Source: Marsupella aquatica (taxonomy: Eukaryota; Plantae; Marchantiophyta). From it: a stretch of DNA of 64,000 nucleotides. This document shows, piece by piece, positions 8,250 through 53,631 of this stretch. Numbering within the stretch: position 1 is the first letter of the stretch; each line of letters opens with the position of its first letter. The stretch is from positions 21,244,262-21,308,261 of the forward strand of contig OZ316898.1 of NCBI GenBank assembly GCA_973895155.1, written 5' to 3'. Below the pieces are notes generated by a model that saw only the letters and a list, made by a program, of their open reading frames with translations, was not told the origin of the DNA and did no database searches. The position numbers were made by a program, and so were the translations under genes.

Positions 8250-8262
8250 AAGCAGGGAGCTA
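8250..8262 (+). other. Polypurine tract of family-B element
   Basis: aagcagggagcta lies immediately before LTR start TGTGA, homologous to 47610-47622. Confidence 0.8.
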
Positions 8263-25296: not shown

Positions 25297-25534
25297 CTCC
25301 AGGACGGAAGCTGACTCGAGAGCAGAATCGCTCCATTGCTGTGCTCCTTGTCCCTGTGGTGGAGGTGCAGCCTATTGCTGAACGGGATCCCCCGCCCATC
25401 CTTACAGGTGGGGCGGTGGGGGTGGTTGGTGGGAATGCTGCTCCCTCTGACCTGCTGAATGTTGAGGCATAATTTTGGCTATTTGTTGCTTCTCCTGAAG
25501 CTGCTTTGCTGGCCCCTTGGAGAAGTGGAGCGAT

Positions 25535-30887: not shown

Positions 30888-33800
30888 CTACCTGAGTCGT
30901 CTGCGCGAGTCGTCATTCCTATATGCATGCCAAATTAGAATTTGTATCCTCTCTCCGGACAGATCGTTGCAGGTGCTGCTCTTGGATTCCCCCCACTTGT
31001 GCACCTGGGTTTGCCCGATTTGATCAAACGGAAAGAAGCACTTGAAGCAAGCATTATTATGGCATTCTTGACTCTTCACATTACAGTTGGAAACCCGATG
31101 GCGATTGGACAGACACCGCAGGCATAACCCTCTCATTACGCCACACTCCCTTATTCCATGATTTATGTGAGTCCTCCCAACACAGGAGACATCGCCTCCC
31201 ATCACCCCCATGCCGGCGAACATAATTGAGATCGATGATATCTTTGCGCATGTTTGCCTCTATCCTTATGCTTTCCGGTCTCGGAATATATACATCCTGA
31301 ACAGCTGCTCCGTCTGGCCTTGTGTGCGAGTGGTGTCTCGGGTGATTGCCTCCACTTCGGCTTGGCGTGGTAGCCGCGGCTTCCAGGCACACGTCACATG
31401 CCAAGCCGTCGGGGAGCAGGGCACAAACCTGTGCCTTCCCGTCCATCTCAAGGTGAAGGTTGTATCACCGACAAATGGTACTGTTCGTGATCCATTGGTG
31501 CGCAATCTTCATGCTCTCCTGGTTGACTCCTTCAATTTGCACGGATGGCGCGGACAACGCCCAGGCACGATAGTCCTTGTGTGAAACCACCATGCACACT
31601 CCGGGCCGGCCGTCCCGTCCACATCTGCCCGACTCTTGGTGGTACTCTTCCATTGACCCATAAAAGCCTCCCCGATGCACGACCAAGAGAATGTTGGGAT
31701 AGTTATATCCGCAGGAGATCACTGAGGTTGCCACCATGACTTTAGGCGTGCCAGCCTCCCAACTTCGTAGCTTGCTAAGTCTATCTGCCTTCACGATGTC
31801 GGAGGTTAAGAAGCAACTTTGGACATGATGTTGTCGCAGAGTTTGATCCAAATCCACAGCTTCACTCTTCGTCATAGTGTATACCAGGGCTCTGTCCTCT
31901 GTGCCGGCAGTGGCCATCCAATCACGTAGAAGTTCCACGATTTTCAAATCCAGCCTGGCCTCATCGTCCACAACTTTGTACTTGAGGTTAGGTCGTGTTG
32001 TACAGGACCGAATCACCTTCCATGGACTTCCCAACTTCCACCATAATGCTGCTTCCTTGCGGGGTGGTAGAGAGGCCGTCAATCCAATCAGCTGACAATG
32101 AAGTCGGGAAAGCCAGAGAAGCTGTGCCATGGATTGACGGTAGGGACACAACACCTGATGCACCTCGTCTATGACGATTGAATGCAATTTGCCGGCGCAA
32201 ATGAGTTGTCTGGCCCAACTTTGGAAACTCTCTTGGATGGCAATCTCGACAGGGACAAACACGAGCAGAGGCGCCTCTGCCACAGGGATACAGCTCACCC
32301 TGAACTCCAAACAATCAAAACCTGCGGCCCTGCACTCCGCCAGCTGAGTGTGGATCAACACATACAGAGGAACGATGACAACCACCGTCTTCCCGCTACT
32401 CCGAGCGGTTGCCATGAAAACGGCCGATTTCCCAGAACCCGTGGGTAGGATGGCTACAAAATTCTGCATGTTGTCCACCGCCGTGGCAACTGCAATTGCC
32501 TGCTCACGCGTCTTCCAATCCCTGTGACCAAGGCTGAAAAGTGCAATCCGTGCTTCATACATCGCAGCAGGGTCCAGGCCCTCAAGTTCATTGCCGTGAT
32601 CGGTGTTTGATCCATCATCACATCTGTGCAGGATCCGGATTCGCTTTGAGGGCGGAGCGAACTCAACTTCCACACCTGGGTGAAGCCGGACCACTTCTGT
32701 GCCTGGCCACAGCTCAGGCTCAGGCTCGGCCTTGGCCTCGGCCTCCGGGTGTCTCCTAAGGTCTGTGGGCAGCCGCAGTAAATGGTGAAGCTTCTTTGCG
32801 ACAAACCTAAAGTTCCTCCACTCATGTTGATCAACAACTCTTAAATCCTGGCTATTCTGTGCATAGTTATGGCCAGTGGTGGACACCGAATGGCCTGCAG
32901 ATGCATCCAGCCGCTCATTAGCCAGTGATATCTGCAGCTGGAACCGAATGGGCTCGGAAAAGAACGTTATAATGTGCCGATGAGGCCTAATCCCAAATGG
33001 GGCCTTGAATCGTTTCAAAAACTCCCTCTCCACACCTGCACTCACATGCCGTGTTGAACGCCTTTTTCCGGTTTCAACTAACCAACAATCCGTGTACACC
33101 GCTACTTTCTCTCCACCCCACAATTGACTCGCAACGAACACCTGCACAAGCCTCACCACGCTAAGGTACTGGAGGAAGGCTAGCCTCAAACATAGGGGTA
33201 AGAACCGAATGATGTGCTTTGAGCGTTTCCGACCACACGTTTTGTTATATGTTTGGTGTATCACCAAGGTCCCTTCTGCCCACAGGAACGTCCGTTGGTT
33301 GGTTGTTGTGTTGCGGATCAAGACTCTGCTGTACTCCGCTGCCCTAGCTGGCTGACCCGATGTAAAATGCAGCAACCAAGTGAGCCGGTCGTTCAATCTA
33401 TCGGCGGCGGCCAGCCACTCGCGTAGGGCCTTCTTGTTCCACATCTGGATGTCGTTCTCGTCGTAGCGATGGACAAAATGTGATGATCTCATGTCATCGG
33501 AGAACAGATGCTGGTGCAATCGTGCCTGTGCTCGTGGAACGGGTTTCTTTCTTTGGTGAGGAACGAGTATCCGTTCCTATCTTTGTTGAGCTCGTCCACA
33601 ATTACGCTGCCCCCGGGTACCAACAGTTGCTCCAACCAATCCGTGTCCAGACCTAGAAGAACTTGTTCCCGCATGAGGACGGTGCATTCACTAATCACCG
33701 CCATCACCATTTCTCTATAGCCATCCAGTGTGATCGGGTAACCGTTCACTTCGCATTCTATGTAACCGGGCTTTGATGCAACGAGATCCGGTCTTTTCGG

Positions 33801-35490
33801 CTTTTCGCCGACGAGCGAGCAGATAAGGGTCTGCCAAGAAGAAATGTAGCCAAATGGTGTCTCTATTAGCCTGGGTTTATCCTCCACGTACGCCAGAATT
33901 GCTCTCGCATCTTCGACATCCAGGTCATCCGCTGCCGCTCGATTCCAAAGAGTGCGACATAACTCCATTTTGATTGCCGCTCGGCACCAGAATTTCATCA
34001 TTGACAACATTGGGGTGACATCTGTGGATTCCTTCCATGCATAACCACTGGAGAGCACGCACGCTTTGAGCGAGGACAAGATCAAAAACTGCAAAAAAAA
34101 ATTGTCCGTCAATTTCCGGGCTACCACCTTCGTCAGATGTGGGAGGGTCCACAAACCGAGCAACAGGTCGTGTAGGACAGTGTAGTCAAAGTGGTCCGGG
34201 TCTATGGGACCCTCTGAAAGGGACTCCAACTGGATCTTTAGGGCTTGGAGAAGGACCTTCAAGCGGTCGGGAGCCTTCACAACGAGGAGCACATGGGAGC
34301 CTGGAGGATCACATGCAGAGAGCAATAAAGTGAACAGGAAATTTGTCATGACCGAGCAATACTTCTCTATCGTGGACTCCTGGAGGAACTCGATGAATCC
34401 CTGTGGAGAGTCAGGACTCACAACCAATGTCCTCACTCGGAAATCCACCTCGACCACGACTTTTTGCACAAGCGTGGCATACGAGAGCACAACATCCGGG
34501 ACCCGTGCATATGGGGAACCTTCCCGGCGAGCCAAACGCATGGGACCACTGATATCGTTGTACGTTGAATTCTCTGGTATGAGTCCTGCTGCAACCTTCA
34601 CCCATCCAGTGGCTCGCAGCCACGCGGATAGATCTCGAGGGGGAGGATCGTTCTGTGCGGGGAGCGTCCACTCCATCTCAAGAATTGCCTTGGACAGCGC
34701 GGACTTCAGGCTTTGGTTGCTACGTCGGGCTCGGTCGGCTGGACATCGGACTGCAAAGTACTTCTTCCCGACACCTTGAACAAGACATTGAACACTACTA
34801 CTGCAACGCATGGTCATATCGGTAACTTCGGCATGCACTCGTATCGTGTGATTACGCATAGTCTTCCTACTTGTGCTGTGGTAGGTAGTGCAAAAGGGGC
34901 ACGAGTAGCCTCTGCGGACAACGATACCGAGGACTGGGGAGAATAATCCCCGAATATAATGATCCCACACTGCACTGGGGGGGTTAATTGCATCCCTGTG
35001 ATGGCCATCGACAGCTGTCGCTCATCTTGTCGGCTCCATAAGCTTCTTCCCCCATTCCTATGGAGGGCGCGAAATCCTTCCAGACATGCCTGCAAACCGT
35101 CCCCACGCTGGAACCATCCAGGATAACATTGCAGGTAACGCACAAGAGCAATGCCATGCCCTCGTACTTCACCACAGACAAATCTGCTCGACTTAACACA
35201 TCTGGGGTGTCCACAAATTCTGAGATTGTCGCCACCCGGGGACTTTCATTACTGGGAACCGAATCACCCGAATCACCTGCTGGGACCGATGCACGACTAT
35301 GGGTTGTCCCTTGGATGTGTTCTCTGGCATAATGGTTCTGCAAGCGGTCCGGTTGACGGAAGCGAGACAAGCAAGAACGGTGAGGGCACGGCCAATCACG
35401 AGCTACGGATATGCGGACTGAAGATCTCGTGCCATCAGCCTCGACAACATTGCAAATCGACTGATGAACTGTGCCTGGCAGCTGGCGGCA
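30888..35490 (-). pseudogene. Zn-finger/DUF3505-like + tyrosine-recombinase-like + RecQ-family helicase fusion gene (telomere-linked-helicase-like architecture), disrupted
   Basis: C2H2 finger CPHRSC..F..L..H....H. Motifs LLLCVTC..H, GYSCPFC..MRNH....H..VQCL..YFAV and SAWLRATGW. YR-like TSGQPARAAE / YNKT / RPHRH / AGHS..NYA. Helicase LPTGSGKS, DEVH, TAS, TTRPNL, ATSV, QESGRCGRDG. Zn-binding CR*..DG..C..CDVC and a Cys-rich tail. Frameshifts near 34980, 33500 and 31170; in-frame TGA at 31465. Confidence 0.85.
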
Positions 35491-36831
35491 GGACTAATCA
35501 ATGCAACCTATCATTTACTACCCTTGTCAGAGTCATTTGCCCTTATTTGGAAAGACGGTCCATCGCAATTCAATGGGCCGACGGCTGTACCCGTGAGTGT
35601 CATCATAATAATAAGGACCCTAAACCGGCCCCCACCGTTGTTAGTGCATACAACATTATTGTATCGCTACCGTAGGGGCAGTATTGTGAACAACAACAAC
35701 AATGCTACTACTGTTGCAAGAAATTCCTTTTTGCAAACTCTCAAATACCAGGCCCATGACCGAAGGGTAGTAGTAGTAGATGAAGTGTTAAAGTAAACTG
35801 TTGAAATATTCTACGCTCGATTACGCGGATGAAAGTCATGTTTCAGATATGACTGATGACATTTTTCAAGTATTGATTAAAAACCAGGAGTTATCTTGAA
35901 GTGAGTGATACATCATGATAAAGAATTCATCTAATATCTCTCTGCATCAAAAACATGTGTAAAACTCTTCCTCTAACAACTTGTTTTGTGGTTCTCTCAG
36001 GGACGGGGCCAAATTGACTAATTAGAGAGCGACACCAAGTTCGGAACGCACATCTTTATTGTCCTCTTTCATCTTCCAATTTTATATTTGACATGGTAAT
36101 AATTCACAACCATGTAAACAATTAATTAAACCATGTAAACCATGTAACGTTAGAAATACTGGGCAGCGGGCAGTCACGTACTGGGTTAATAAAGGCTAAT
36201 GGCATTCATTAGCCTCGATCTTGCCTTTCGTTCTTAGTAACAATCAGCACATAATAGGATGTGATCATGGATTGCATTCTTGAAGGTATCATGTACCCAA
36301 ACTACCCTTGCCTATGCAAAAATTAAAACCTGGTTGGGCCCGTTGCGGGGACAGAGTGTAGGCCTTGTATTTTTGTGAGGAAAGTATGCAAAGAAAAGAG
36401 CTTGGAATCCACTTGCCATGATATTAGGATAATGATGAGAATTTTCTTTTACTAGTATGTATTAACAAATTGAATCTTCAAACTAAGTTGCCCAAGATCA
36501 AATTACAGATAGTTATAACTAATGGCTCAATCCAAGCCATCATTTTTCTTATGGCATAATCTTGTTATTGTAGATGAGCTTTGATGTCATTCTTATAAAT
36601 TTAATTTAATGCACATAAATTTAATACAAATTTACAACACTACTCTGAATGTACTTTGGCTATATAAATTACGTGAAAGAATTGAGTTTGGACCCACATA
36701 CTAGTTCAGCACCTTGGAAAGAGTGTCACAGGTGACCTGTGATGCCTAGACAGGAATCACTCGGCCGGTTAAGTGGGTAAAGCAGGAAGGCACCCTAGGA
36801 ACACCTTAGTATAGTGACAAAACAAGGAAAA

Positions 36832-36837
36832 TATAAA
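36832..36837 (+). promoter_or_regulatory. Candidate TATA box near the LTR 5' end
   Basis: TATAAA is conserved in all four family-A copies that include this region, upstream of the LTR ORF. Confidence 0.4.
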
Positions 36838-36852
36838 CAATTAGGGGCAACC

Positions 36853-39800
36853 ATGGAACCCGGGCCGAGGCCGGAGGTAAGGCTAAGGGTGAAAACCCGA
36901 TTAGGGTTAGGGCGCGTTAAGCGTCGGCGGCTAGGAAGGATCAACGGGAAGAAGGACCGGCAGAGGAGAGGGGTAAGGAGCGCTTGCAGGAGATGGTGGC
37001 TCATTTGCGAGCACGAACTAGGCAGACGACTACGGGAGGCCAACTACTGTCAGCTGCTTAGGCAAGCACTCGGGGAGAGAGTAGATACCGACGATCGACC
37101 TAAGGAGGGTATGAGCAACGTCAATCAAGCGGCACATTTCTGGGGATGCCTGTTCGAACGGGCAACTGAGTACATCAAGACTTACGAGGACGAGGAGTCA
37201 GAAAGGGCAGCTCGAGAACGGTAGGAGCTCGCTCAATTGTGGGAGCTGCAGAAGACGGCTTTCTTAGGAGGCGAACTCATCAAGGATGAGTTCCTGTGGA
37301 CGCCTACTTCCAATCAACTCGACGATCTTCTGTTTTGCAAAGACAGCGTCGTCGGCATCCGAGAGGCCATCAAGAACTGCAACGACATACACTGGGAATT
37401 AAAGGGTAGCACGGAAAGGTGGACCCAGGCAACGGTGCTAGGAGAAACCTCCACGGCAGCAGAGATGAAGAGGAAGGGAGCCGTCAACGATGAAGCCACC
37501 CCGGCAAAAAGAACGAGGTCGGCGGCACCAAAGAAGCCAGCCGAGCAGCAGAGCAGGAGGCAGGGAGAAGCCGAAGAGGAGGAGGTCGATCCCATCAAGG
37601 CCATTCCAACCAGGGATGACACCTGGAAGGGCTGGGCAGCAACCCTACCGGTGGAGGTGCAACTACATTTTGCACGGGAGGAGGATGCATGCTTTACGGC
37701 CATGCAGACCAAGAAGTACCAAGGCTTCATGGCCGGATCCGGCTTGGAGGCCTTTGTAAGATTACCATGGCTGAAGCCGGAGGTACCGGAGTCAGACCTA
37801 TTAGAATTCGTGGGGTCATGGGAACCCGAGACCAATTGCACGAGGATATATGGGAAGGATTTCTATCTTACTCCCAAGGTAATTGCCGAAGTGTTTGGCC
37901 TGCCGATAGGCAATAAGACCAAAGTTGATACCAGGAAGACCTTGCCTGACAAGGAGTTCCGGTCGTTCCCCGGGCCATCAACGAAGAATGGCTTCTTCCG
38001 GAACACCTGCACCAACCCGCACATAGGAGAGATGATCGACTTCTTGCGGGTGACCATGCATTGTAACTTGCCGAGGGCAGAGATCGGCAAGGCACAGGTC
38101 TATATGGCAGAAAGGCCAGACCCAAGCCGGGACTACAACGGGTACCTCCTCAACCAATTGAAGAAGATCTTAAAGGAGGAGCAGCAGGTAATCGGCATGG
38201 GGAGCGTGTCGCGGCTTGGCTATCACATGCCGCTGTTGTGCCGGTATGCCAGAGGTCAGACTTTTGCCCCGGTACTTCCCCTGCAGGTAAGGGCACCCAA
38301 GGAAGCTCCAACGCCGAGGCCGTTGGCTGAGAAGCCTCAACCACCTGTTAGTCCTACGATCGAGCAGGTGTTTAGGCCCAGGAAGGAAGACTTGCCGATG
38401 CAGCAACCAGGCATGCAGAGTCTGCTGAAACTACTGGAGAAAGAAAAGAAATCGGCATCGGCAACAACAACGGCAACGGCAACAATGCAGGACACTACTA
38501 CAGAGGTAGGCCTACACCGGCTCACAAGAGAAAACCCCTTTGCTGGAGACAAGGAGAGAATCAGGCCGGAATCCAAGCCAGGTGTTCGAATGTACGTGGG
38601 AACCTCAAGCTCCGAATCTGAGGCAGAATTGCCTGAAGCTCCTACCGACGAAGAGGAGAGGGAGAAGCCGGACGTCCAAGAGGTAGAGGAGGCAGTGGAG
38701 GACTGCAGCCATGATAATTCCGGCTATGGGTCGGACCATCACGTTCCAGGAGTAAGGACCTGTGGCCGGTTTGTCCCCACACTTCCAAGGGTAGTGCGAG
38801 GGGACCCCAACCAGCAGAGTAGCCCTGAGTCTCCCCCACCAGATGTTGCTCCCCCGAGCTTCGACGGCATAAAACAGACGGTGCAGGAATTTCAGGAGCG
38901 AATCAAGCAGGAGGAAGAGGCCGCCCTGGCTAAGGAAAAGGATTTACCAGGAGGAGATTGGCCGGAGGACATCAGGCGGCTAGCCGAAAAAGGAAGCAAA
39001 CCTCTAGCCACGATTGAAGAGATCCGCAGGACGGCTTGGGAGCAGAGGCCACGATGGGCGATGCCGATCACTTCTACTTACTCCACCTACGCTAAGAATA
39101 GAGCCATGGAGTATGGTGAGATGTGTGGGGAACTTGCGCTCGGCATCTTTGGAGAGGAGTTGGAGGAAGGACCCTTTTTCCATAGGGAGCAGTTGGAGAA
39201 GCACCAATTAGAAGAAGCGGTGGCTTTAGAGAGAAGCAAGAAGGACGAGGTCATTCGGCGGCTTAGGAGGATGGAAGCCGAGATTGAAGATCTAAGGGCG
39301 GCCAAGAAAGCCCAAGATGAACTACGGATTAAACGACATGAGCTGAACATCATGCAGGGGCAGTTGGACACCGCGCAGGCTGATAATCAGAATATCAAGG
39401 ATAAACTGACTCAGACGCAGGAAGAGTTGGCCGACACGATCAAAGAGAGGGAGAAGTGGAAGCAAGAGCTGAAGAATACAGAGGAGGCCCACATAACAGC
39501 CAACAGCCGGGCCATGGCGGAGACCCAAAGAAAGGAATGGGCGTTAAAGGGGGAGCTCGAGAAAATCCGCGGAGCCCTTGAACAGAAGGAGGTCGAGTTA
39601 GGGAAATCCTATCAAGGGATTATGGCGCTACAGCAGGAGTTTGCGTCCCTGACGGCCAGCTTCAAGGCCGACCTAAGGGAGAAGGACGAGATGCTCGAAC
39701 AGACTTACGCCAAGATGAACCAGATGGAGTCTGTCATCATTGCAGAGCTCGACAAGGAGCTAAGAGCAACCCAGGAGGAGAGGGCTACCTTGAAGAAGGA

Positions 39801-40476
39801 ATTGGAGGAAGCCCACAGGGAGCAGGAGGAGGCCAAAAATGAGCTGGAGGGGGCACGTAAGGACCTGGATGAAACCCAAGAGGAGTTGGAGGAAATCACG
39901 AGGAAGATGGAGAACCTACAGCGGCGGGCCGACAACCAAACAGAGCGGCTGAAGAAACAAGCCGCAGTATTTAAATGCTTAGCTGCAGCAGGTCCATCTC
40001 CCGTTGGGACAAACCAGTTACCAGGGGTGGTAATTGCCGAAGGACAAGCCGCGCCAACTGCACCAGTGCCGGAAGTAAGTGGGAAGGGGAAGGGACCAGC
40101 TGCCGAGCCACCAACGAAGAAGAAGCGGAAACCTTCAGGGTCAAGGAGTAATACGACTTCACAGGCCGTGGTGATCAAGGAGGTAGACCCAGCACCGACC
40201 CCAGACAGGGTCACGGCTAAGGATCCAACTACCCTAGGGGAAGGGGAGGCCGAAGCCGAGGGAGTGGCTGAAGCCGAAGCCGTGGGAGTGGCTGAGGCCA
40301 AAGCCGTGGGTATTGCCGAGGCCGGTGTCGAGGCTGAAGCCGAAGGTGGACCCAGTCAGGCCGATGGAGAGTTGACTCGGTCAAGGGCAGGTAATCTGTC
40401 AGTAGGCGGGCCAACGGCAGTGGCTGAGGAGGAAGTGTTGGGGGCGTCCATTGAGGATCCACCACCGGTGTCGTGA
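36853..40476 (+). pseudogene. LTR-encoded ORF, 1207 codons, single premature TAG at 37222-37224 (1079-aa open segment remains)
   Basis: 36814..37224 and 37237..40476 are in the same frame; the TAG is CAG in the 3' LTR. Central PMD/plant-transposon-like domain, long heptad coiled coil and KKKRK basic motif. Confidence 0.9.
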
Positions 40477-41402
40477 CGGTGCAAGGGCGCCGTTCCTTTT
40501 AGGGAGGGCGGACGTGGAGGGAGGAGGCGTGAGTGGGCAGGGCGGGCACGGATCTCCACGTTTAGGATTAGGATCAGAACCAGGAGCGGCCCTGACACTT
40601 AGCTTAGTGGGATTGCGGTCCCACTGGTAGGAGCAACACTTGTGCTCCTGCCTTGCTGTACATAGGTAGATTCGGGCAAGTAGATTACTGTCAGGTAGAT
40701 TAGGCTTACGATGCAAAGAATGGCGGATCCACTACCAGGATAAGTACCTGGGCAGCGGGGAGCTCAGGGCCTCTTCTTTAGCAAGTTTTTAGTTTGCACC
40801 AGCCGGGCTGGGATCAAGTAGTACGAGAAGCTCTCGGTTAGTCATACAGTGACCCTTGTGTATATTCATGTTTCCTCATGCCTAAGAGCTGAATAGAGTT
40901 GGCCTCACGGCTTAGTTCGCAGAACTTGTGTATGAGATGTACTGTTTGTATGGCAAGTGCATGGTATGACTCAGTCAGAATGAGTCATTTTGCTATTTGT
41001 GTGTCGCATTAACTTGTGTGAAGAGTGCCCACATCAACAGAAGGAAGGAAAGTAAGCAGGGGAGTGAGAGTTGGATGTGTCGAGCTGAGAGAGGTCTTAG
41101 CGGCTTAACCAAGCCTATTGGGGATCATTCCGGCGGCGGAATCCAAACATACCTAACAAGACGGAGGGGAAGACAGGGGAAGACAGGGGAAGGCCTATAT
41201 TAGGCCGGCTACGTATCTCATGACCCGATGAAGGATCTGTCCAGTATATGTGTGTAAAATGTTAATAGTAGTAGTAGAAGGTTAGCAGCGTCCCATGCCG
41301 CTAAGCCACGGAAACGGCCTCGCCAAGCATGAAACCTGCGGGAATCGGCTTGAGCTGGGGGGGTTTCTTGGGTTTAGGGAGCCATGGGACGCACCACATT
41401 TT

Positions 41403-41420
41403 TGGCGCTAGATGGAGGGG
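41403..41420 (+). other. Primer binding site
   Basis: TGGCGCTAGATGGAGGGG, 4 nt after the 5' LTR. TGG is complementary to tRNA CCA; the cognate tRNA is not identified. Confidence 0.8.
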
Positions 41421-41467: not shown

Positions 41468-44461
41468 ATGACTGACCTTACGCCGAGGGAAGAAAGAGTG
41501 ATTCAACGGGAGAGAGCTCGACTGCAGCAGCTCGCCGGGTGGCATGATACACAGCGACTGAGAGGGGCAGAAAGAGCTGGTAGCTCCGAAACTGGAAGTG
41601 GCGTCGAAGAAGACATACCAAAAGAAGAGTCGGTAAGGAGAAGTGAGTCTCCAACCGACATGGGGGAACCAGAGGCACGGCCAGACGAGAGGCCAGGGAC
41701 CAGATTGAGCCAGCGGTCGCGCATACATTACAAGGCATTTCATGGGAGAGGAGATGAGGATCCGGACGAATGGTTGGATGATTTCGAGGGAACCGCTGCA
41801 GCAAATGGAGAATCGGCCATCAAGATGCAGATTCTTCCCGGCCTGTTCAAGGGTGAGGCTAGGCCTTGGTACAGAGCATTAGATGTGGAAGATCAAGCCA
41901 TCTGGGATATCTTCAAAACACTCTTTGTTAAGGAGTTTCGACCCATTGGAACTTCAGAACTAGCAGTGCTGAAGTTGGGACAACTTCGGTTCAAGGAGAA
42001 CAAATCCTTCAGGAAGTTCTTGCAACGCTTTCAGAAACTGGTAAGACGTACAAAGACCAATGCATCTGAAGGTATGCAACTTCAATGGTTGGTGAATGCT
42101 TTGCCACAGAAGATGAGTTTTGCAATTAGGAAGGAGAACCCGGAGACCTTAGCCGAAGCAATTAAGGATATTCAATTATACATTAATGCAGATATCACAA
42201 GCCGGAAGAAACAGCTTAAGTCTGAGAGTTCCTCATCAGAGGAGGGATCACCCCATAAGAAAAAAGATAAGAAGAAGAAACATTCCAAGAAGTCTAGAAG
42301 TGATAAGTCAAGCTCGGATAGTGGGAGTAGCAAGAGTGAGTCATCTTCTAGTTCTGAAGAAGAAAAAACTAGGAAAAGGAAGGGCAGAAGGAGAGGGAAG
42401 ACGAAAGTCAAGATGGAGGCTAAGCCACCAGATAACATCGTAGCCCTTACCGAGCAACTTAAGGCTATCATTGCAGAGGTAAAACCAAAGAAGAAGGTAG
42501 TACAGGAGGATAGCTCTGTATGGTGTGCCTTATGTTATAAAACCGGACACCATAAAGATGCGTGTCCTAAGCTTAATACTAATCATGTTCGGCATGTGGC
42601 CAAGATCAGACCATGTCAGGGAGAAGTAGAGTACTTTTTGGGAGATGCCGCTGATAGTGTTTTCGGCATCAGTGAGACTGGAGCACGAGACCTATCCAAC
42701 AGACCTGCATCTCTGTGGTCAGGGTTAAGGAACAATCCAAGAGAGATGTATCCTCGGATTATTCAGAACCCGTCAGTACCTCCTAGGCCGAATGTGCAAA
42801 GATTTGCGGCGTGCTATAATTGTGGTCAACCTGGCCATTTTGCTAGAGAATGCCCGAATGCACGCAAACAGGGTGATGGACAACCAGCTCAGCTATGTAT
42901 GGGATGCCGACAGGAAGGTCATATGCTAGGGCAATGTCCTACTTGGTTGGCAGGCCTGGCCGCAAATCATAAGCTTTTGCCGATCAAGATCTTACCGCCA
43001 GGTACTACCCCCGGAGGAGTTCAAATCAACCACATCGAACTAGGATGGCAAGAGGATGCCGAGGCAGAGTTCGTACCATCTGATGATGAGGCCGAAGCCC
43101 TATCAACCTTCTCAGAGGAGGATTTAGATCATGATTGCTACCGGGTCTCTACTCGATCTACCAGAAGGAAGGAAAGGTGGGATGGGCTGGCCAAAAATAA
43201 AGGGAAGGTTACGGAGGAAAGGATCGACTCTTCGTCAACATCAACAGAAGGAGAAGGGAGGGCTCCGGCAATACAGGTAAGCCATGAGCCCACCAGTGAA
43301 ACCAATCCTTCACAAGATAGCGACTTCAATCGAGATCATCCTAAGTTGTTCTACCCCTCTGTTACGGCTAGTGTTAAGGAACAACTAAGAGAATTAGAAA
43401 CCCTGGAGAATACCGAAGCCATTGCCAAGGATGTAAAACGAGCAAAAGCATTGTTTGCTTCGGAAGACCCAACAGCTGTGGAGACTAGCGTGGCAAAACT
43501 GGCCGAATCCAAGACGGAAACACCACCAGAAGAGAAGCCGATTGTTCCCTATGACCTGGCTAAAGATGTACTAGAATCTAGAGTCTCGGCAACAGTAGGT
43601 CAACTATTGAAAAATAGCCCGTACTTCCGGAAGCAATTAAGGAAGGCTATTCTCGGCAAGCCGAGATTACCCAAGGTAGCAACCAGATCCGACGTACTAA
43701 TGATAGAAGAAGATCAAGGAGCCCCAGCATTACCATTAATGATTCAAGGAGAATTATTACTACGGGTACCCATCGATGGAGGATCAGGGGTATGTATTAT
43801 GATTGATTCAACAGCAAAAGGGTGGGGTCTAACACCGGAGATGACTGGAAGAGTGTTGAACATGGCCAATGGATATCAGGTCATTCCGACGGGAGTGTTA
43901 ACCGGCATCAAGACAGAGATAGGAGGTATCTTCTTTAGCATTAACTATGTAGTAATGAAGCCGGTAAATCCTACGTCATTCCGGCTATTGATTGGTAGGC
44001 CATGGCTGTACCTAGCCGAGGTAATAGAAGATTGGGGTAAAAAGCAGTTCACTTTCGGGACCCCCTCTATCACGGTATCCTGGGACACTAAGGATGACCG
44101 TAGGAAAAGCATAAGGGAAGTAGATGGGTACGACAGTGGACTGGAGTCAGCCGATGAAGTACGTTGGTTAGAATGCCTCACTAACCTAACCGAAGAAGGT
44201 GTCTTTGGACCAGAGGTACCCCCCAACGGATTATGGCAAGAACCAATGGAAGGTGACTTGGAAGAAGAAGACGAAGAGGTCGAGGACTGCTTTACAATAG
44301 AATCCACCTTTTTAGCTGCAATTCCGGAGGAAGTAAAGGATGTAGACCAATTGGATGAAACGGCTAAGTGGGGAGCAGTAGCAGGGACAGTGGATTTTCT
44401 GCAGGCGTTGTGGCAGAGCCGACGGGGTCCACAACGCCATCGATCATCGGCAAGGAATTAA
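41468..44461 (+). CDS. gag: Gag-protease polyprotein (capsid-like domain, three CCHC zinc knuckles, aspartic protease)
   Basis: 997-aa ORF: FHGRGDEDPDEWLDDF..ARPWY; CALCYKTGHHKDAC, CYNCGQPGHFAREC, CMGCRQEGHMLGQC; IDGGSGVCI and LLIGRPWL. Confidence 0.93.
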   Translation: MTDLTPREERVIQRERARLQQLAGWHDTQRLRGAERAGSSETGSGVEEDIPKEESVRRSESPTDMGEPEARPDERPGTRLSQRSRIHYKAFHGRGDEDPDEWLDDFEGTAAANGESAIKMQILPGLFKGEARPWYRALDVEDQAIWDIFKTLFVKEFRPIGTSELAVLKLGQLRFKENKSFRKFLQRFQKLVRRTKTNASEGMQLQWLVNALPQKMSFAIRKENPETLAEAIKDIQLYINADITSRKKQLKSESSSSEEGSPHKKKDKKKKHSKKSRSDKSSSDSGSSKSESSSSSEEEKTRKRKGRRRGKTKVKMEAKPPDNIVALTEQLKAIIAEVKPKKKVVQEDSSVWCALCYKTGHHKDACPKLNTNHVRHVAKIRPCQGEVEYFLGDAADSVFGISETGARDLSNRPASLWSGLRNNPREMYPRIIQNPSVPPRPNVQRFAACYNCGQPGHFARECPNARKQGDGQPAQLCMGCRQEGHMLGQCPTWLAGLAANHKLLPIKILPPGTTPGGVQINHIELGWQEDAEAEFVPSDDEAEALSTFSEEDLDHDCYRVSTRSTRRKERWDGLAKNKGKVTEERIDSSSTSTEGEGRAPAIQVSHEPTSETNPSQDSDFNRDHPKLFYPSVTASVKEQLRELETLENTEAIAKDVKRAKALFASEDPTAVETSVAKLAESKTETPPEEKPIVPYDLAKDVLESRVSATVGQLLKNSPYFRKQLRKAILGKPRLPKVATRSDVLMIEEDQGAPALPLMIQGELLLRVPIDGGSGVCIMIDSTAKGWGLTPEMTGRVLNMANGYQVIPTGVLTGIKTEIGGIFFSINYVVMKPVNPTSFRLLIGRPWLYLAEVIEDWGKKQFTFGTPSITVSWDTKDDRRKSIREVDGYDSGLESADEVRWLECLTNLTEEGVFGPEVPPNGLWQEPMEGDLEEEDEEVEDCFTIESTFLAAIPEEVKDVDQLDETAKWGAVAGTVDFLQALWQSRRGPQRHRSSARN

Positions 44462-47400
44462 ATACCAAGGGATCGGCATACAAGCCGATTACGAGGGCAG
44501 AACAAATTGAGGCCCTATTAGAAGCCGAGAGAGCACAGCGGCCTAACTCTCAGGAGCAAGAGGTGGATGAGATGGACAGACACGATCTAGAGCCAAGGCA
44601 GGAAGGGGAGCCGACCACTAATTCAAAACCGAATAGACCGGTAAGGGGACAATCTATGGACACCAAGGAAGGGACCGACTCGGCTAGTCCAGCCGAGATC
44701 CCAGTTTATGGAGGTATGAGATTAGAGAGACTGGAAGCCGAACTGGACCCGAATTTGAAGAAGCAGATTAATATGATCCAAGCACGGCAATATCGGAAGC
44801 TCGACTTAGGAGAGGGAAGAGAACTGAACTTAGGGAGAAACCTAGCACCTGAGCTCGAGAAAGAGATCAGTGACTTATTGATTGAATTTCAGGATGTGTT
44901 TGCATGGAGTCACCAAGATCTAAAGGGAGTAGATCCAACACTAGGGGAACATCGAATTGATCTCATGTTAGGAGCCAAATCATTTCGACAACCAATTCGA
45001 AGGATGAACCCGAAGTATTCCCTGCTGGTCAAAACAGAAATCGACAAACTAGTGGAAGCTGGATTCATCACTCCAGTCTTGCATTCAGACTGGGTGTCTC
45101 CAATTGTGATAGTTCCCAAGAAAGCTGGACCCGATGGTAAACCCAAGATCCGGGTTTGTCAGGATTACAGGAAGCTGAATGAAGCAACATTAAAAGACCA
45201 TTTTCCTTTACCGTTTACTGATATGGTACTAGACATGGTAGCCAATCATGAACTATATTCATTCATGGATGGATACTCTGGTTATAACCAAATCAGGATT
45301 CGGCAGGAAGACCAAATCAAGACGGCCTTCATCACGGAATGGGGGATCTATGTCTTCAATCGTATGTCGTTTGGACTCTGCAACGCACCAGCTATGTTCC
45401 AACGATTAATGGTGAACATTTTTCATGATTACTTGAGAAAGTTCATGGAAATCTTCATTGATGACTTTGCAGTATTCGGGAAGGCATCGAAACATGCTAA
45501 ATACCTCAGGAAAACCTTCATGAGATGTAGAGAGGTGGGTCTCAAGTTACACCCAGATAAATGTTTTTTTGCAGTAACCGAGGGGGTGCTACTAGGTCAC
45601 AAGGTATCAAGGAAGGGCATTGAGATTGACAAAGGTAAGCTAGCAGTATGGCTAGATATCATGCAACCTAAGAACATAAAGGATGTAAGATCCTTCTTGG
45701 GATGCATTGGTTACTATCGCCGGTTCATCAAGGATTTTGCCAAGCTGGCTTTACCATTAACCAATATGCTCAAGGCAGGAGCAGACTTCGAACCCACACC
45801 CGAACGAGTCACAGCGGTGGTAGAATTGAAGCAGATGTTAGTAGAGGCCCCAGTCATGATAGCACCGGACTGGAACAAAGATTTTCATGTTTTTGTAGAT
45901 GTCTCGGGCTTCTGTATTGGCTCAGTACTAAGTCAGTTGGATGAGAAAGGAAGGGACCATCCCATATACTTCGCAAGCCGTCAGCTTGCCGATGCCGAAC
46001 GGAACTACTCTACCACGGAAAGAGAAGCATTAGGAGTCATTTATTCTTGTAAAAAGTTTAGGCATTATTTACTAGGGTACAAGGTAATCTTTCATACTGA
46101 TCATGAAAGTTTGAAGTACCTAGTCAATAAGCCGGACCTTACAGGCAGAGTAGCAAGATGGATTTTGCTATTACAGGAGTTTGACTATGAGCTGAGGATC
46201 AAGCCGGGAAAGTTACATGCCAATGCCGACTTCTTTTCAAGGATCACAGGTAAACCTGCCACGGATTGCATCGATGATCGATTCCCCGACGAGGAGCTAT
46301 TCATTGTGGAAATAGCTGATACATGGTACCCTAAGATTTTACAATTTCTCAGCACTTCCAGATTACAGCCAGGATTAAGCCGAGAGCAAGCCGCAGTCTT
46401 TGTGCGGAAGGTCAGACAGTATCAGTGCATTAAAGGCATACTGCACAAGCATGGAATCAACGGCACGATTCAAAGGTGTTTGGAAAAGAGAGAGGTAAAA
46501 CGAGTCCTACGGGCCATGCATGGAGAGGAGGCCAGAGGACATTCTGCCCCAGTAACCACGTCTAAGAAGATATTAAATGTCGGTTACTGGTGGCCCACCT
46601 TGCACAAAGATGTCTATCAGTTTATCAAACAATGCGATCCTTGTCAACGAGCGGGAGGACCAAGGGCGTCCACCAGGCATCCACTGCACCCTATTCTACC
46701 TCTGGCACCATTCGAGAAGTGGGGTATTGATTACATTGGACCTCTGAAACCACTAACCCACCCTCGACGGAACAAGTACATAATCCTGGCTACGGATTAT
46801 GCAACTAAATGGGTAGAGGCCAGACCAACAACGAAGGATGATGCAATTACTACGGCTAGATTCATGTATGAGCAGATCTTCACCAGGTATGGAGCACCCC
46901 TAGAATTAGTTAGTGATAGAGGAACCCATTTTTTGAATGATATAATTAGTCGTTTAAATGAGCAGTATTTAGTTAAACATAGGCCTACTACTCCCTACCA
47001 TCCAAAGGCAAACGGGTTGACAGAACGAGCAAACGGAATCATAGGAAAGATATTGAACAAGACAGTAGCTCAGAACAAACTCGATTGGGATGATAAATTG
47101 TTTGCTGCTGTTTTTGCTTACAATCTTGCCTATAAATCCACTACCGGTCATACACCCTTCTTCTTAACCTTTGGACAAGAAGCCCTGGTACCCATGCAAC
47201 TTGAGATACCGACATTTCAAGTTACAATTGAGGAAAGAGCCTCAGCGGAGGAGAGCCTAAAGGAGCGAGAATATAGGTTAGAAGCTTTAGAGGAAGCGAG
47301 AATGATTTCAGCCGAGAGAGTAGAATATAGACAGAATATCATGAAGCAGCAGTATGATAAAAGGTTAAAAGTAGTTAGTATTCATACCGGTGATCTTGTG

Positions 47401-47634
47401 CTACTTTATGACAGTAGGTATAGTAGGTTTCCAGGAAAGCTTTACACTCGCTGGTTAGGACCCTTTAGAGTAACCATGATGTTCCCCAATGGCTCCGTAC
47501 AATTGGCCAACATTACGGGAGAGGTATATCCAGTTCGCATCCATTATGACCGCCTCAAGAAATACTATATGGACGAAGATGAAGTTGTTCGCGAGGATGC
47601 TTCACAATTAAGTGGGGAGCTATGTGATGCCTAG
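44368..47634 (+). CDS. pol: Pol: reverse transcriptase, RNase H, integrase (-1 frame relative to gag-pro)
   Basis: Uninterrupted 1088-codon ORF: CQDYRKLN, FMDGYSGYNQI, FIDDFAV, VDVSG..TEREAL..TDH, H..GH..CDPC, WGIDYIGP, SDRGTHF, NGLTERAN, WLGPF. No chromodomain. Confidence 0.95.
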   Translation: MGSSSRDSGFSAGVVAEPTGSTTPSIIGKELNTKGSAYKPITRAEQIEALLEAERAQRPNSQEQEVDEMDRHDLEPRQEGEPTTNSKPNRPVRGQSMDTKEGTDSASPAEIPVYGGMRLERLEAELDPNLKKQINMIQARQYRKLDLGEGRELNLGRNLAPELEKEISDLLIEFQDVFAWSHQDLKGVDPTLGEHRIDLMLGAKSFRQPIRRMNPKYSLLVKTEIDKLVEAGFITPVLHSDWVSPIVIVPKKAGPDGKPKIRVCQDYRKLNEATLKDHFPLPFTDMVLDMVANHELYSFMDGYSGYNQIRIRQEDQIKTAFITEWGIYVFNRMSFGLCNAPAMFQRLMVNIFHDYLRKFMEIFIDDFAVFGKASKHAKYLRKTFMRCREVGLKLHPDKCFFAVTEGVLLGHKVSRKGIEIDKGKLAVWLDIMQPKNIKDVRSFLGCIGYYRRFIKDFAKLALPLTNMLKAGADFEPTPERVTAVVELKQMLVEAPVMIAPDWNKDFHVFVDVSGFCIGSVLSQLDEKGRDHPIYFASRQLADAERNYSTTEREALGVIYSCKKFRHYLLGYKVIFHTDHESLKYLVNKPDLTGRVARWILLLQEFDYELRIKPGKLHANADFFSRITGKPATDCIDDRFPDEELFIVEIADTWYPKILQFLSTSRLQPGLSREQAAVFVRKVRQYQCIKGILHKHGINGTIQRCLEKREVKRVLRAMHGEEARGHSAPVTTSKKILNVGYWWPTLHKDVYQFIKQCDPCQRAGGPRASTRHPLHPILPLAPFEKWGIDYIGPLKPLTHPRRNKYIILATDYATKWVEARPTTKDDAITTARFMYEQIFTRYGAPLELVSDRGTHFLNDIISRLNEQYLVKHRPTTPYHPKANGLTERANGIIGKILNKTVAQNKLDWDDKLFAAVFAYNLAYKSTTGHTPFFLTFGQEALVPMQLEIPTFQVTIEERASAEESLKEREYRLEALEEARMISAERVEYRQNIMKQQYDKRLKVVSIHTGDLVLLYDSRYSRFPGKLYTRWLGPFRVTMMFPNGSVQLANITGEVYPVRIHYDRLKKYYMDEDEVVREDASQLSGELCDA
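44392..44451 (+). promoter_or_regulatory. Candidate -1 programmed ribosomal frameshift signal (slippery heptamer + stem/pseudoknot)
   Basis: G GAT TTT in gag phase at 44392-44398, a 5-nt spacer, then a perfect 10-bp stem ggcgttgtgg/ccacaacgcc. Loop gccga is complementary to downstream tcggc. Pol is in the -1 frame. Confidence 0.72.
47610..47622 (+). other. Polypurine tract
   Basis: aagtggggagcta lies directly before the 3' LTR and within the last pol codons. Confidence 0.85.
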
Positions 47635-50600
47635 ACAGGAATCACTCGGCCGGTTAAGTGGGTAAAGCAGGAAGGCACCCTAGGAACACCTTAGTATAGT
47701 GACAAAACAAGGAAAATATAAACAGTTAGGGGCAACCATGGAACCCGGGCCGAGGCCGGAGGTAAGGCTAAGGGTGAAAACCCGATTAGGGTTAGGGCGC
47801 GTTAAGCGTCGGCGGCTAGGAAGGATCAACGGGAAGAAGGACCGGCAGAGGAGAGGGGTAAGGAGCGCTTGCAGGAGATGGTGGCTCATTTGCGAGCACA
47901 AACTAGGCAGACGACTACGGGAGGCCAACTACTGTCAGTTGCTTAGGCAAGCACTCGGGGAGAGAGTAGATACCGACGATCGACCTAAGGAGGGTATGAG
48001 CAACGTCAATCAAGCGACACATTTCTAGGGATGCCTGTTCGAACGGGCAACTGAGTACATCAAGACTTACGAGGACGAGGAGTCAGAAAGGGCAGCTCGA
48101 GAACGGCAGGAGCTCGCTCGATTGTGGGAGCTGCAGAAGACGGCTTTCTTAGGAGGCGAACTCATCAAGGACGAGTTCCTGTGGACGCCTACTTCCAATC
48201 AACTCGACGATCTTCTGTTTTGCAAAGACAGCGTCGTCGGCATCCGAGAGGCCATCAAGAACTGCAATGACATACACTGGGAATTAAAGGGTAGCACGGA
48301 AAGGTGGACCCAGGCAACGGTGCTAGGAGAAACCTCCACGGCAGCAGAGATGAAGAGGAAGGGAGCCGTCAACGATGAAGCCACCCCGGCAAAAAGAACG
48401 AGGTCGGCGGCACCAAAGAAGCCAGCCGAGCAGCAGAGCAGGAGGCAGGGAGAAGCCGAACAGGAGGAGGTCGATCCCATCAAGGCCATTCCAACCAGGG
48501 ATGACACCTGGAAGGGCTGGGCGGCAACCCTACCGGTGGAGGTGCAACTACATTTTGCACGGGAGGAGGATGCATGCTTTACGGCCATGCAGACCAAGAA
48601 GTACCAAGGCTTCATGGCCGGATCCGGCTTGGAGGCCTTTGTAAGATTACCATGGCTGAAGCCGGAGGTACCGGAGTCAGACCTATTAGAATTCGTGGGG
48701 TCATGGGAACCCGAGACCAATTGCACGAGGATATATGGGAAGGATTTCTATCTTACTCCCAAGGTAATTGCCGAAGTGTTTGGCCTGCCGATAGGCAATA
48801 AGACCAAAGTTGATACCAGGAAGACCTTGCCTGACAAGGAGTTCTGGTCGTTCCCCGGGCCATCAACGAAGAATGGCTTCTTCCGGAACACCTGCACCAA
48901 CCCGTACATAGGAGAGATGATCGACTTCTTGCGGGTGACCATGCATTGTAACTTGCCGAGGGCAGAGATCGGCAAGGCACAGGTCTATCTGGCAGAAAGG
49001 CCAAACCCAAGCCGGGACTACAACGGGTACCTCCTCAACCAATTGAAGAAGATCTTAAAGGAGGAGCAGCAGGTAATCGGCATGGGGAGCGTGTCGCGGC
49101 TTGGCTATCACATGCCGCTGTTGTGCCGGTATGCCAGAGGTCAGACTTTTGCCCCGGTACTTCCCCTGCAGGTAAGGGCACCCGAGGAAGCTCCAACGCC
49201 GAGGCCGTTGGCTGAGAAGCCTCAACCACCTGTTAGTCCTACGATCGAGCAGGTGTTTAGGCCCAGGAAGGAAGACTTGCCGATGCAGCAACCAGGCATG
49301 CAGAGTCTGCTGAAACTACTAGAGAAAGAAAAGAAATCAGCATCGGCAACAACAACGGCAACGGCAACAATGCAGGACACTACTACAGAGGTAGGCCTAC
49401 ACCGGCTCACAAGAGAAAACCCCTTTGCTGGAGACAAGGAGAGAATCAGGCCGGAATCCAAGCCAGGTGTTCGAATGTACGTGGGAACCTCAAGCTCCGA
49501 ATCTGAGGCAGAATTGCCTGAAGCTCCTACCGACGAAGAGGAGAGGGAGAAGCCGGACGTCCAAGAGGTAGAGGAGGCAGTGGAGGACTGCAGCCATGAT
49601 AATTCCGGCTATGGGTCGGACCATCACGTTCCAGGAGTAAGGACCTATGGCCGGTTTGTCCCCACACTTCCAAGGGTAGTGCGAGGGGACCCCAACCAGC
49701 AGAGTAGCCCTAAGTCTCCCCCACCAGATGTTGCTCCCCCGAGCTTCGACGGCATAAAACAGACGGTGCAGGAATTTCAGGAGCGAATCAAGCAGGAGGA
49801 AGAGGCCGCCCTGGCTAAGGAAATGGATTTACCAGGAGGAGATTGGCCGGAGGACATCAGGCGGCTAACCGAAAAAGGAAGCAAACCTCTAGCCACGATT
49901 GAAGAGATCCGCAGGACGGCTTGGGAGCAGAGGCCACGATGGGCGATGCCGATCACTTCTACTTACTCCACCTACGCTAAGAATAGAGCCATGGAGTATG
50001 GTGAGATGTGTGGGGAACTTGCGCTCGGCATCTTTGGAGAGGAGTTGGAGGAAGGACCCTTTTTCCATAGGGAGTAGTTGGAGAAGCACCAATTAGAAGA
50101 AGCGGTGGCTTTAGAGAGAAGCAAGAAGGACGAGGTCATTCGGCGGCTTAGGAGGATGGAAGCCGAGATTGAAGATCTAAGGGCGGCCAAGAAAGCCCAA
50201 GATGAACTGCGGATTAAACGACATGAGCTGAACATCATGCAGGGGCAGTTGGACACCGCGCAGGCTGATAATCAGAATATCAAGGATAAACTGACTCAGA
50301 CGCAGGAAGAGTTGGCCGACACGATCAAAGAGAGGGAGAAGTGGAAGCAAGAGCTGAAGAATACAGAGGAGGCCCACATAACAGCCAACAGCCGGGCCAT
50401 GGCGGAGACCCAAAGAAAGGAATGGGCGTTGAAAGGGGAGCTCGAGAAAATCCGCGGAGCCCTTGAACAGAAGGAGGTCGAGTTAGGGAAATCCTATAAA
50501 GGGATTATGGCGCTACAGCAGGAGCTTGCGTCCCTGACGGCCAGCTTCAAGGCCGACCTAAGGGAGAAGGACGAGATGCTCGAACAGACTTACGCCAAGA

Positions 50601-52272
50601 TGAACCAGATGGAGTTTGTCATCATTGCAGAGCTCGACAAGGAGCTAAGAGCAACCCAGGAGGAGAGGGCTACCTTGAAGAAGGAATTGGAGGAAGCCCA
50701 CAGGGAGCAGGAGGAGGCCAAAAACGAGCTGGAGGGGGCACGTAAGGACCTGGATGAAACCCAAGAGGAGTTGGAGGAAATCACGAGGAAGATGGAGAAC
50801 CTACAGCGGCGGGCCGACAACCAAACAGAGCGGCTGAAGAAACAAGCCGCAGTATTTAAATGCTTAGCTGCAGCAGGTCCATCTCCCGTTGGGACAAACC
50901 AGTTACCAGGGGTGGTAATTGCCGAAGGACAAGCCGCGCCAACTGCACCAGTGCCGGAAGTAAGTGGGAAGGGGAAGGGACCAGCTGCCGAGCCACCAAC
51001 GAAGAAGAAGCGGAAACCTTCAGGGTCAAGGAGTAATACGACTTCACAGGCCGTGGTGATCAAGGAGGTAGACCCAGCACCGACCCCAGACAGGGTCACG
51101 GCTAAGGATCCAACTACCCTAGGGGAAGGGGAGGCCGAAGCCGAGGGAGTGGCTGAAGCCGAAGCCGTGGGAGTGGCTGAGGCCGAAGCCGTGGGTATTG
51201 CCGAGGCCGGTGTCGAGGCTGAAGCCGAAGGTGGACCCAGTCAGGCCGATGGAGAGTTGACTCGGTCAAGGGCAGGTAATCTGTCAGTAGGCGGGCCAAC
51301 GGCAGTGGCTGAGGAGGAAGTGTTGGGGGCGTCCATTGAGGATCCACCACCGGTGTCGTGACGGTGCAAGGGCACCGTTCCTTTTAGGGAGGGCGGACGT
51401 GGAGGGAGGAGGCGTGAGTGGGCAGGGCGGGCGCGGATCTCCACGTTTAGGATTAGGATCAGAACCAGGAGCGGCCCTGACACTTAGCTTAGTGGGATTG
51501 CGGTCCCACTGGTAGGAGCAACACTTGTGCTCCTGCCTTGCTGTACATAGGTAGATTCGGGCAAGTAGATTACTGTCAGGTAGATTAGGCTTACGATGCA
51601 AAGAATGGCGGATCCACTACCAGGATAAGTACCTGGGCAGCGGGGAGCTCAGGGCCTCTTCTTTAGCAAGTTTTTAGTTTGCACCAGCCGGGCTGGGATC
51701 AAGTAGTACGAGAAGCTCTCGGTTAGTCATACAGTGACCCTTGTGTATATTCATGTTTCCTCATGCCTAAGAGCTGAATAGAGTTGGCCTCACGGCTTAG
51801 TTCGCAGAACTTGTGTATGAGATGTACTGTTTGTATGGCAAGTGCATGGTATGACTCAGTCAGAATGAGTCATTTTGCTATTTGTGTGTCGCATTAACTT
51901 GTGTGAAGAGTGCCCACATCAACAGAAGGAAGGAAAGTAAGCAGGGGAGTGAGAGTTGGATGTGTCGAGCTGAGAGAGGTCTTAGCGGCTTAACCAAGCC
52001 TATTGGGGATCATTCCGGCGGCGGAATCCAAACATACCTAACAAGACAGAGGGGAAGACAGGGGAAGGCCTATATTAGGCCGGCTACGTATCTCATGACC
52101 CGATGAAGGATCTGTCCAGTATATGTGTGTAAAATGTTAATAGTAGTAGTAGAAGGTTAGCAGCGTCCCATGCCGCTAAGCCGCGGAAACGGCCTCGCCA
52201 AGCACGAAACCTGCGGGAATCGGCTTGAGCTGGGGGGTTTCTTGGGTTTAGGGAGCCATGGGACGCACCACA
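47623..52272 (+). repeat. 3' LTR (4650 bp)
   Basis: Direct repeat of 36738-41398 with scattered substitutions and a ~10-bp repeat-unit indel (ggggaagaca). Followed by TSD TGACC. Confidence 0.96.
47738..51361 (+). pseudogene. LTR-encoded ORF, 3' LTR copy; premature TAGs at 48026-48028 and 50075-50077
   Basis: Same length (3624 nt) and frame as the 5' copy. Both stops are sense codons (TGG, CAG) in the 5' LTR. Confidence 0.9.
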
Positions 52273-53571: not shown

Positions 53572-53631
53572 ACTCCTTGTCACCAAGGGGAGCGGTGCTG
53601 TGCCATGAATTAAGCAAGGCTGAGTGGGAGG

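Follow-up and report, generated by a model that had tools for sequence, protein, structure and literature searches.

Introduction

The long terminal repeats (LTRs) of retrotransposons are usually treated as non-coding, and recombination between the two LTRs of an element is taken to inactivate it. Accessory genes that are duplicated together with the LTR are known from vertebrate retroviruses, namely sag of mouse mammary tumour virus (MMTV) and nef of human immunodeficiency virus (HIV). Both are a few hundred codons long, lie in U3 and have functions unrelated to those considered here. In this work, a 64,000-nucleotide stretch of the genome of the liverwort Marsupella aquatica (contig OZ316898.1, positions 21,244,262 to 21,308,261; hereafter the window, with positions counted from its first letter) was analyzed. 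It contains a Ty3/gypsy element whose giant LTRs each carry a large gene that has been under purifying selection.

According to the available parts of the cited sources, extra open reading frames (ORFs) with PMD, Transposase_28, Transposase_32 or Athila ORF-1 domains occur in Ogre, Retand and Athila elements, and plant LTRs of up to ~5 kb are on record (PMC6317226, PMC7264820, PMC11728184). VANC proteins bind non-coding sequence of transposable elements (TEs), remove silent marks and act on VANDAL elements (PMC10398659), and VANC was found to be structurally alike to the PMD protein MAIN (10.1101/2024.04.02.587720; PMC13547354). PMD-C proteins counter Polycomb at DNA motifs (10.1101/2024.09.27.615353), and H3K27me3 lies on ~40% of Marchantia TEs (10.1101/2022.10.21.513199). 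The available text of two reports on bryophyte LTR elements (PMC12885004, PMC7466625) presents them without a gene housed in the LTR. No described element with this layout was found in the literature; the repeat libraries Repbase, GyDB and REXdb were outside the scope of that search.

Results

Anatomy of the Element

The element, assigned to family 1, lies on the plus strand, as do all features below unless stated otherwise. It is bounded by a 5′ LTR of 4661 bp with TG..CA ends (36738–41398) and a 3′ LTR (47623–52272), which appeared as one direct repeat of 99% identity when the window was compared with itself. Across 4650 columns the pair differs by 36 substitutions, of which 32 are transitions and 4 are transversions, giving a Kimura two-parameter distance of 0.0078. 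The outer LTR ends are flanked by a 5-bp target-site duplication (TSD), TGACC (36733–36737 and 52273–52277). At the inner ends, a tRNA-type primer binding site (PBS) of the TGG type (41403–41420) begins 4 nt past the 5′ LTR, and the polypurine tract (PPT, 47608–47622) directly abuts the 3′ LTR. An LTR complement to the PBS, as in self-priming, was looked for and none was found. The internal region holds a gag-protease ORF (41468–44461) with Retrotrans_gag, three CCHC knuckles and a protease-type motif, followed in a different frame by a pol ORF (44368–47634) with reverse transcriptase (RT), RNase H (RH), integrase (INT) and a GPF motif. The pol stop codon sits 12 nt inside the 3′ LTR. The whole element is ~15.5 kb long and has the gag-PR-RT-RH-INT order of Ty3/gypsy elements. 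The 94-nt overlap of gag-pro and pol (44368–44461) suggests that pol is expressed through a frameshift or a splice.

The great length of the repeat and the nested insertions of the window would both fit gag-pol being flanked twice by a duplicated block or by a distinct element with an ORF. The TSD found outside the repeats and the PBS and PPT found on their inner sides speak against this explanation, and a second family described below has the same PPT/TG border. The block does not carry a short LTR at both of its ends, and two further copies start at the identical position of the repeat in unrelated surroundings; the 4.66-kb repeats are therefore genuine LTRs of a Ty3/gypsy element. The duplicated-block explanation was already largely refuted by these observations and was given a negligible probability.

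The LTR-Borne Reading Frame

Each LTR contains a sense ORF of 3624 nt, or 1207 codons, located at 36853–40476 in the 5′ LTR and at 47738–51361 in the 3′ LTR. It begins 115 nt into the LTR and terminates 922 nt short of the LTR end. A preliminary description of the window had reported giant, TSD-bounded LTRs each holding a frame of this size, interrupted by premature stops that differed between copies and free of frameshifts in three copies, all of which was borne out. The stops were located at 37222 in the 5′ LTR, at 48026 and 50075 in the 3′ LTR, and at 2565–2567 and 1935–1937 in a third copy on the minus strand (100–4017, 93.7% identical, ORF 3902–267). All five are TAG and each was found in a single copy only. 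The ORF of the 3′ LTR has no indels, and the four indels of the minus-strand copy are all in frame. The longest open stretch comprised 1083 codons, compared to a maximum of 371 among 200 shuffles of the LTR.

Selection on the frame was estimated by pairwise Nei–Gojobori ratios of non-synonymous to synonymous substitution rates (dN/dS) with bootstrap ranges. The comparison among diverged copies had been chosen beforehand as a possible refutation of the gene, with a ratio of about 1, combined with frameshifts common to the copies, as the adverse outcome. The values came out well under 1: the ORF gave 0.38 (0.28–0.51) against the minus-strand copy and 0.29 (0.25–0.35) against a fourth, diverged copy (12272–18753, minus strand, 83–86% identity). 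Two shifted sense frames used as a control gave 0.94–1.37; one antisense frame was also low (0.35–0.36), as expected, since its third codon position coincides with that of the ORF. Third codon positions showed about double the divergence rate of first and second positions. Indels within the ORF were in frame in 4 of 4 cases for the minus-strand copy and in 8 of 10 for the diverged copy, compared to 2 of 8 outside the ORF. In contigs assembled from four public DNA runs, only one compensating pair of indels fell within the ORF among the 12 of 13 indel rows listed. Constraint was strongest in residues 246–480, where dN/dS was 0.04 and 0.14 in the two comparisons, and weakest in the C-terminal tail (0.61–0.71). 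The LTR gene is under purifying selection. The earlier claim of an accessory gene maintained by selection and housed in the LTR was thus upheld by dN/dS, by codon-position bias, by in-frame indels and by the second divergent family with the same layout.

The frame could instead be a passenger, either a captured fragment of a host gene or a by-product of purine-rich composition, that is now functionless. Stops are present in every copy in the window, and dN/dS between the element's own two LTRs was 0.51 (0.25–1.12), which is compatible with neutral decay since insertion. The ratios of 0.29–0.38 between insertions, the shuffle control and the homologous gene in a family with only 24% identity of the shared domain argue the other way, and for the history of the lineage this explanation was refuted, with hardly any probability left to it. 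Taken together, the artefact and passenger explanations were regarded as very improbable.

A Second Family with Probably the Same Layout

A related element, assigned to family 2, is represented by a gag-pro remnant and pol (4138–8247), with a pol that is 61–65% identical to family-1 pol at the amino acid level. A near-identical PPT is followed by a 4009-bp sequence with TG..CA ends (8263–12271), which contains TATAAAA at 8622 and an ORF at 8739–11402. This ORF is interrupted by several stops and one frameshift and encodes an N-terminal domain, a globular domain (9585–10355) and a coiled coil. The globular domain matched that of family 1 with 24% identity over 229 columns (E 4e-15). The end of the 4009-bp sequence interrupts the diverged family-1 LTR, relatives of which continue normally across that point.

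Two points weigh against the assignment of this sequence as an LTR: no partner LTR, TSD or PBS is present within the window, the 5′ end of the element lying outside it, and no PBS at its end was seen among the 18 of 138 rows listed. Because of the partner LTR outside the window and the PBS not seen, the 3′ LTR of family 2 is called likely only. Judged from the sequence, two divergent families appear to have the same layout, with a homologous gene inside a giant LTR of 4.66 kb in family 1 and of ~4.0 kb in family 2. A profile search of the window recovered five copies of the globular domain, all five located in giant LTRs.

Predicted Protein

The encoded protein opens with a small N-terminal domain and a basic linker. 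A globular domain of ~200 residues comes next, then a disordered spacer, a predicted coiled coil of ~245 residues and a low-complexity tail. The globular domain (residues ~270–470, 37660–38262) is the most constrained part and is intact in the 5′ LTR. The coiled coil (residues 801–1045, 39253–39987) was predicted from composition and a weak match to the ATG16 coiled coil. The tail includes the basic stretch KKKRK (40117–40131), a candidate nuclear localization signal, and a second basic motif is present at residue 219. A transmembrane helix, as in env-like proteins, was looked for and none was found, the highest mean hydropathy over 19 residues being 0.96.

An HMMER search against 1.84 billion representatives returned 20 matches. 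One of these (P0008), an Ig-repeat protein with eight short matching stretches, was removed as spurious. Two of the remaining 19 homologs carry an organism name, and both are from the liverwort Calypogeia fissa. Word-based homolog searches gave no match, and neither did a sequence search of PDB. In the language-model Atlas, the best neighbour was an unnamed cluster (0.92), and the named neighbours were Transposase_32 and ATHILA clusters (0.84–0.88) for two queries, the window protein and the homolog P0009.

A first model of the globular domain (pLDDT 54.7) gave no Foldseek match. A second model, built from 27 rows, reached pLDDT 68.5 and pTM 0.60. Its exhaustive comparison with 48,161 PDB chains placed the DNA complex of VANC21 (9lnk_A) at the top, a weak match with Z 4.6, an rmsd (root-mean-square deviation) of 5.3, 8% identity and 171 of 201 residues aligned; the runner-up reached Z 3.3 over 55 aligned residues. 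The VANC21 match was given weight because it spans the whole domain, because PMD-type proteins had been the lead before the search and because VANC was reported to be similar to MAIN. A PMD/VANC-like fold of the globular domain is weakly suggested by the model.

Signals around the Gene

One TATAAA is present per LTR in both families, with the ORF downstream of it. In family 1 it is located at LTR position 95 (36832–36837), is kept in all four copies and may serve as the promoter; in family 2 it is located at LTR position 360. Approximately 45 nt past the family-1 TATAAA, a candidate splice donor (36875–36881, GT at 36877) falls within a 25-nt block with no differences to the diverged copy. A candidate acceptor block (37038–37067, AG at 37060–37061), which has one difference in 30 sites, precedes codon 87. 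These blocks, picked post hoc, were compared to a divergence of 25% at third codon positions (280/1106). Two tandem TTAGGG telomere-like units, conserved in all four copies, are located in the LTR leader at ~36897–36908; in Arabidopsis, telobox-type words act as Polycomb response elements, according to the available part of that report (10.1101/2024.09.27.615353).

The real start of the protein is probably codon 87 (37111), which lies 86 codons past the first ATG. Codons 1–86 showed a dN/dS of 0.89 against the diverged copy, and the probability that they would remain open in that copy was ~0.17 in a neutral simulation. In addition, the initial segment of the Calypogeia homolog P0017 matched the beginning of the family-2 ORF (E 0.008). 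Two observations speak for the first ATG instead: it is conserved in all four copies, and dN/dS of codons 1–86 was 0.08 against the minus-strand copy (4 synonymous and 1 non-synonymous changes). The earlier figure of ~78% coding LTR stands for the full frame; codons 1–86 may belong to a 5′ untranslated region or an intron, in which case the gene would comprise ~1121 codons and 72% of the LTR.

A UG-rich tract follows the ORF stop in the LTRs of both families. In family 1 this non-coding block (40797–41046) diverged at only 11 of 250 sites (4.4%), compared to 280 of 1106 third codon positions, and is a candidate 3′-end or strand-transfer signal. A motif of 26–27 nt that could form a hairpin is located 3′ of the tract and is common to both families (41128–41153 and 52013–52038 in family 1; 12087–12113 in family 2). 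It occurred three times in the window and not once in 100 shuffles. Apparent compensatory changes in the motif were dismissed as evidence, because every one of them is C>T or G>A at a site that can be methylated. No match was found in Rfam, and metagenome contigs yielded neither matches to the motif nor confirmed loci. Contig depth peaked over 12080–12124, far above adjacent bins, and because of this peak further LTR families of the host probably share the motif. Over the ORF, contig depth was 3.1–3.5 times the internal median in the public DNA runs X1 and X2, a value that is not a copy number and was not taken as proof of solo LTRs; X3 and X6 were excluded from this comparison, their internal bins being spiked by other families.

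Each LTR looks like a complete gene, because its sole TATAAA is upstream of the ORF and the UG-rich tract and the common 27-nt motif are downstream.

Classification of the Element

A chromodomain, the mark of chromoviruses, had no match in a Pfam scan, and pol ends fewer than 60 residues past the GPF motif. The additional RNase H that defines Tat in the sense of REXdb was not found in the Pfam scan either. The element may still belong to the Tat Z2 clade, because liverwort Tat Z2 elements are likewise without an additional RNase H, as the available part of their description states (PMC13468544). Phygy and Selgy elements are short and have a 4-bp TSD and no extra ORF, whereas this element has a 5-bp TSD, 15.5 kb and an extra ORF. 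With Athila it shares the 5-bp TSD and the lack of both the additional RNase H and the chromodomain, but the extra ORF that Athila has between pol and the 3′ LTR is absent from that position.

Other Elements of the Window

Positions 1–18753 consist of four nested layers of giant-LTR elements in alternating orientation, each inserted in another. The minus-strand copy is inserted in family-2 gag and is itself interrupted at 100 by the end of another family-1 LTR (1–99, plus strand). The diverged copy is cut at 12272 by the end of the family-2 LTR and carries nine stops, two frameshifts and a 1968-bp insertion (15351–17314), which includes short tandem repeats at 16209–16391. An old Ty3/gypsy pol remnant, 27–33% identical to family-1 pol, is located at 19174–22028 on the minus strand. 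Two LINE-like elements with DUF4283, endonuclease and RT were found at 23534–28279 and 52459–57249 on the plus strand, and a Ty1/copia element at 57441–60713 on the minus strand. The segment 56865–57249 is repeated at 62900–63320, beside an 18-bp tandem array. A broken gene with DEAD and Helicase_C domains (31465–35021, minus strand) lies inside the nest and may be a mobile RecQ-like helicase; the ORF preceding it had a weak OrsD-like match (E 0.017).

Discussion

It was proposed that each LTR is a whole transcription unit, with a TATA element near its 5′ end, a short leader that would be spliced in family 1, the ORF and a UG-rich 3′ region. This arrangement would put the gene 3′ of the start site, in R or U5 and not in U3, and both LTRs of an element, as well as any solo LTR, could produce an LTR-contained mRNA. 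The promoter, splice and 3′-end assignments were made from motifs and conservation, selected post hoc, which weakens this proposal.

The position of the gene is a separate question, and a placement in U3 is a substantial possibility, though one given less than an even chance. An Athila-type ORF once located between pol and the 3′ LTR could have entered U3 as plus-strand synthesis came to be primed from a PPT at the end of pol; it would retain its own promoter, and the genomic RNA would start at a second promoter near the 3′ end of the LTR. In both families the pol stop is at the PPT/LTR border and no internal room is left, and Transposase_32 ORFs of Athila are located 3′ of pol in the elements covered by the available text (PMC11728184). 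A purine-rich PPT-like tract and a TATA-like word at 41165–41202 also speak for this placement. However, the word at 41196 is missing from the family-2 LTR and reads differently in related family-1 contigs, and few parts of the LTR are less conserved than the purine tract, which diverged at 25 of 140 sites.

With regard to function, the LTRs of these non-chromovirus Ty3/gypsy elements carry a large accessory gene, and we consider the chance slightly better than even that its product is of the PMD/VANC/Athila-ORF1 type and acts in the nucleus as an oligomeric DNA-binding factor that protects the element from silencing by the host. The protein would be imported into the nucleus and oligomerize through its coiled coil. 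Its target would be non-coding LTR sequence that is conserved, the hairpin motif being a candidate, and it would counter silencing in trans on copies with a competent gag-pol, while the gene would be retained in solo LTRs. A narrower version, in which a VANC-like protein encoded in ~4 kb of R/U5 recognizes a conserved motif in its own LTR and each solo LTR is a standing source of trans-acting counter-defence, is put forward tentatively as the less probable proposition.

Several results weigh against an anti-silencing factor of this type. None of the four family-1 copies in the window is intact. The globular domain had no Pfam match, to Transposase_32, ATHILA and PMD included, in 4 window rows, 20 HMMER matches and 9 further proteins. 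Atlas scores to named families were all below 0.9, and the second model gave no Foldseek match at E ≤ 0.001 in the PDB or viral libraries. The VANC21 match is itself weak, with Z below 8 and an rmsd of 5.3, and the model used for it has pLDDT 68.5 and pTM 0.60. Finally, a shared fold does not show function, because Arabidopsis PMD proteins also promote TE silencing, as reported in the available part of the source (PMC5418596).

The protein might instead serve particle or integration biology as a coiled-coil scaffold, a chaperone or a chromatin tether for the integration complex. The predicted coiled coil makes up one fifth of the protein, the element is without a chromodomain, and the available text of one study predicts that the Athila domain is pentameric through coiled coils; the same text predicts that VANC oligomerizes likewise (PMC13547354). 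Moreover, the most constrained part of the protein is the domain matching a DNA-bound VANC structure. A role in the particle or in integration was considered the less probable explanation.

If the LTR is indeed a gene, solo LTRs remain functionally active, and such genes are overlooked or wrongly labelled by annotation pipelines; NCBI lists relatives as Calypogeia fissa proteins without a name. An anti-silencing role would make the product the retrotransposon counterpart of VANC and would tie the Athila, Transposase_32 and PMD extra ORFs of plant gypsy elements to anti-silencing. For the extra ORFs of Athila/Ogre-type elements, which have long gone unexplained, the structural link to VANC21 would offer a function that can be tested. 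Together with the size of the gene and its conservation across two families, this link makes the finding both surprising and testable. The layout also raises the question of how reverse transcription handles a 4-kb LTR with a promoter that may lie at its 5′ end.

Among known systems, the element most resembles OTA Ty3/gypsy elements with Athila ORF-1 (PF03078), Transposase_32 (PF20167) or Ogre PMD (PF10536), being a non-chromovirus of ~15.5 kb with a 5-bp TSD and LTRs near 5 kb. As in those elements, a sense accessory ORF with basic motifs is present, and the nearest named Atlas clusters are these families. The available descriptions place the OTA extra ORFs internally, either 5′ of gag or in the interval from pol to the 3′ LTR, whereas here the ORF occupies 72–78% of the LTR and is present twice. 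It exceeds the 487-residue ORF described for sunflower Athila more than twofold in length, and it has no Pfam match.

A further related system comprises VANC21 of VANDAL DNA transposons (PDB 9lnk), the best structural match of the globular domain, and the host PMD proteins MAIN and MAIL1; a globular domain with a coiled coil and a TE-encoded accessory role are common features. In contrast to the present gene, VANC has been described in dicots, from DNA transposons of the Mutator type, and with 8% identity and Z 4.6 the match is a weak one. The targets of VANC are fast-diverging tandem repeats, whereas here a single candidate motif is common to both families.

Retrosat2, RIRE3 and FRetro3 (Tekay), with LTRs above 3 kb, also combine very long LTRs with an extra ORF under selection. 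They are chromoviruses; their ORF0 is located upstream of gag-pol and is treated apart from the LTR in the available text (PMC3485330), and no relation to the LTR protein was seen. In maize, LTRs of retrotransposons act as their own transcription units and are often spliced; the available account reports LTR-contained RNAs that are non-coding and on average shorter than 1 kb (PMC13192763), whereas here the LTR holds a large gene. Extra ORFs of the Athila/Ogre type and long LTRs were already known; a large conserved gene housed in the LTR, as seen here in one family and probably in a second, had no counterpart in the literature searched.

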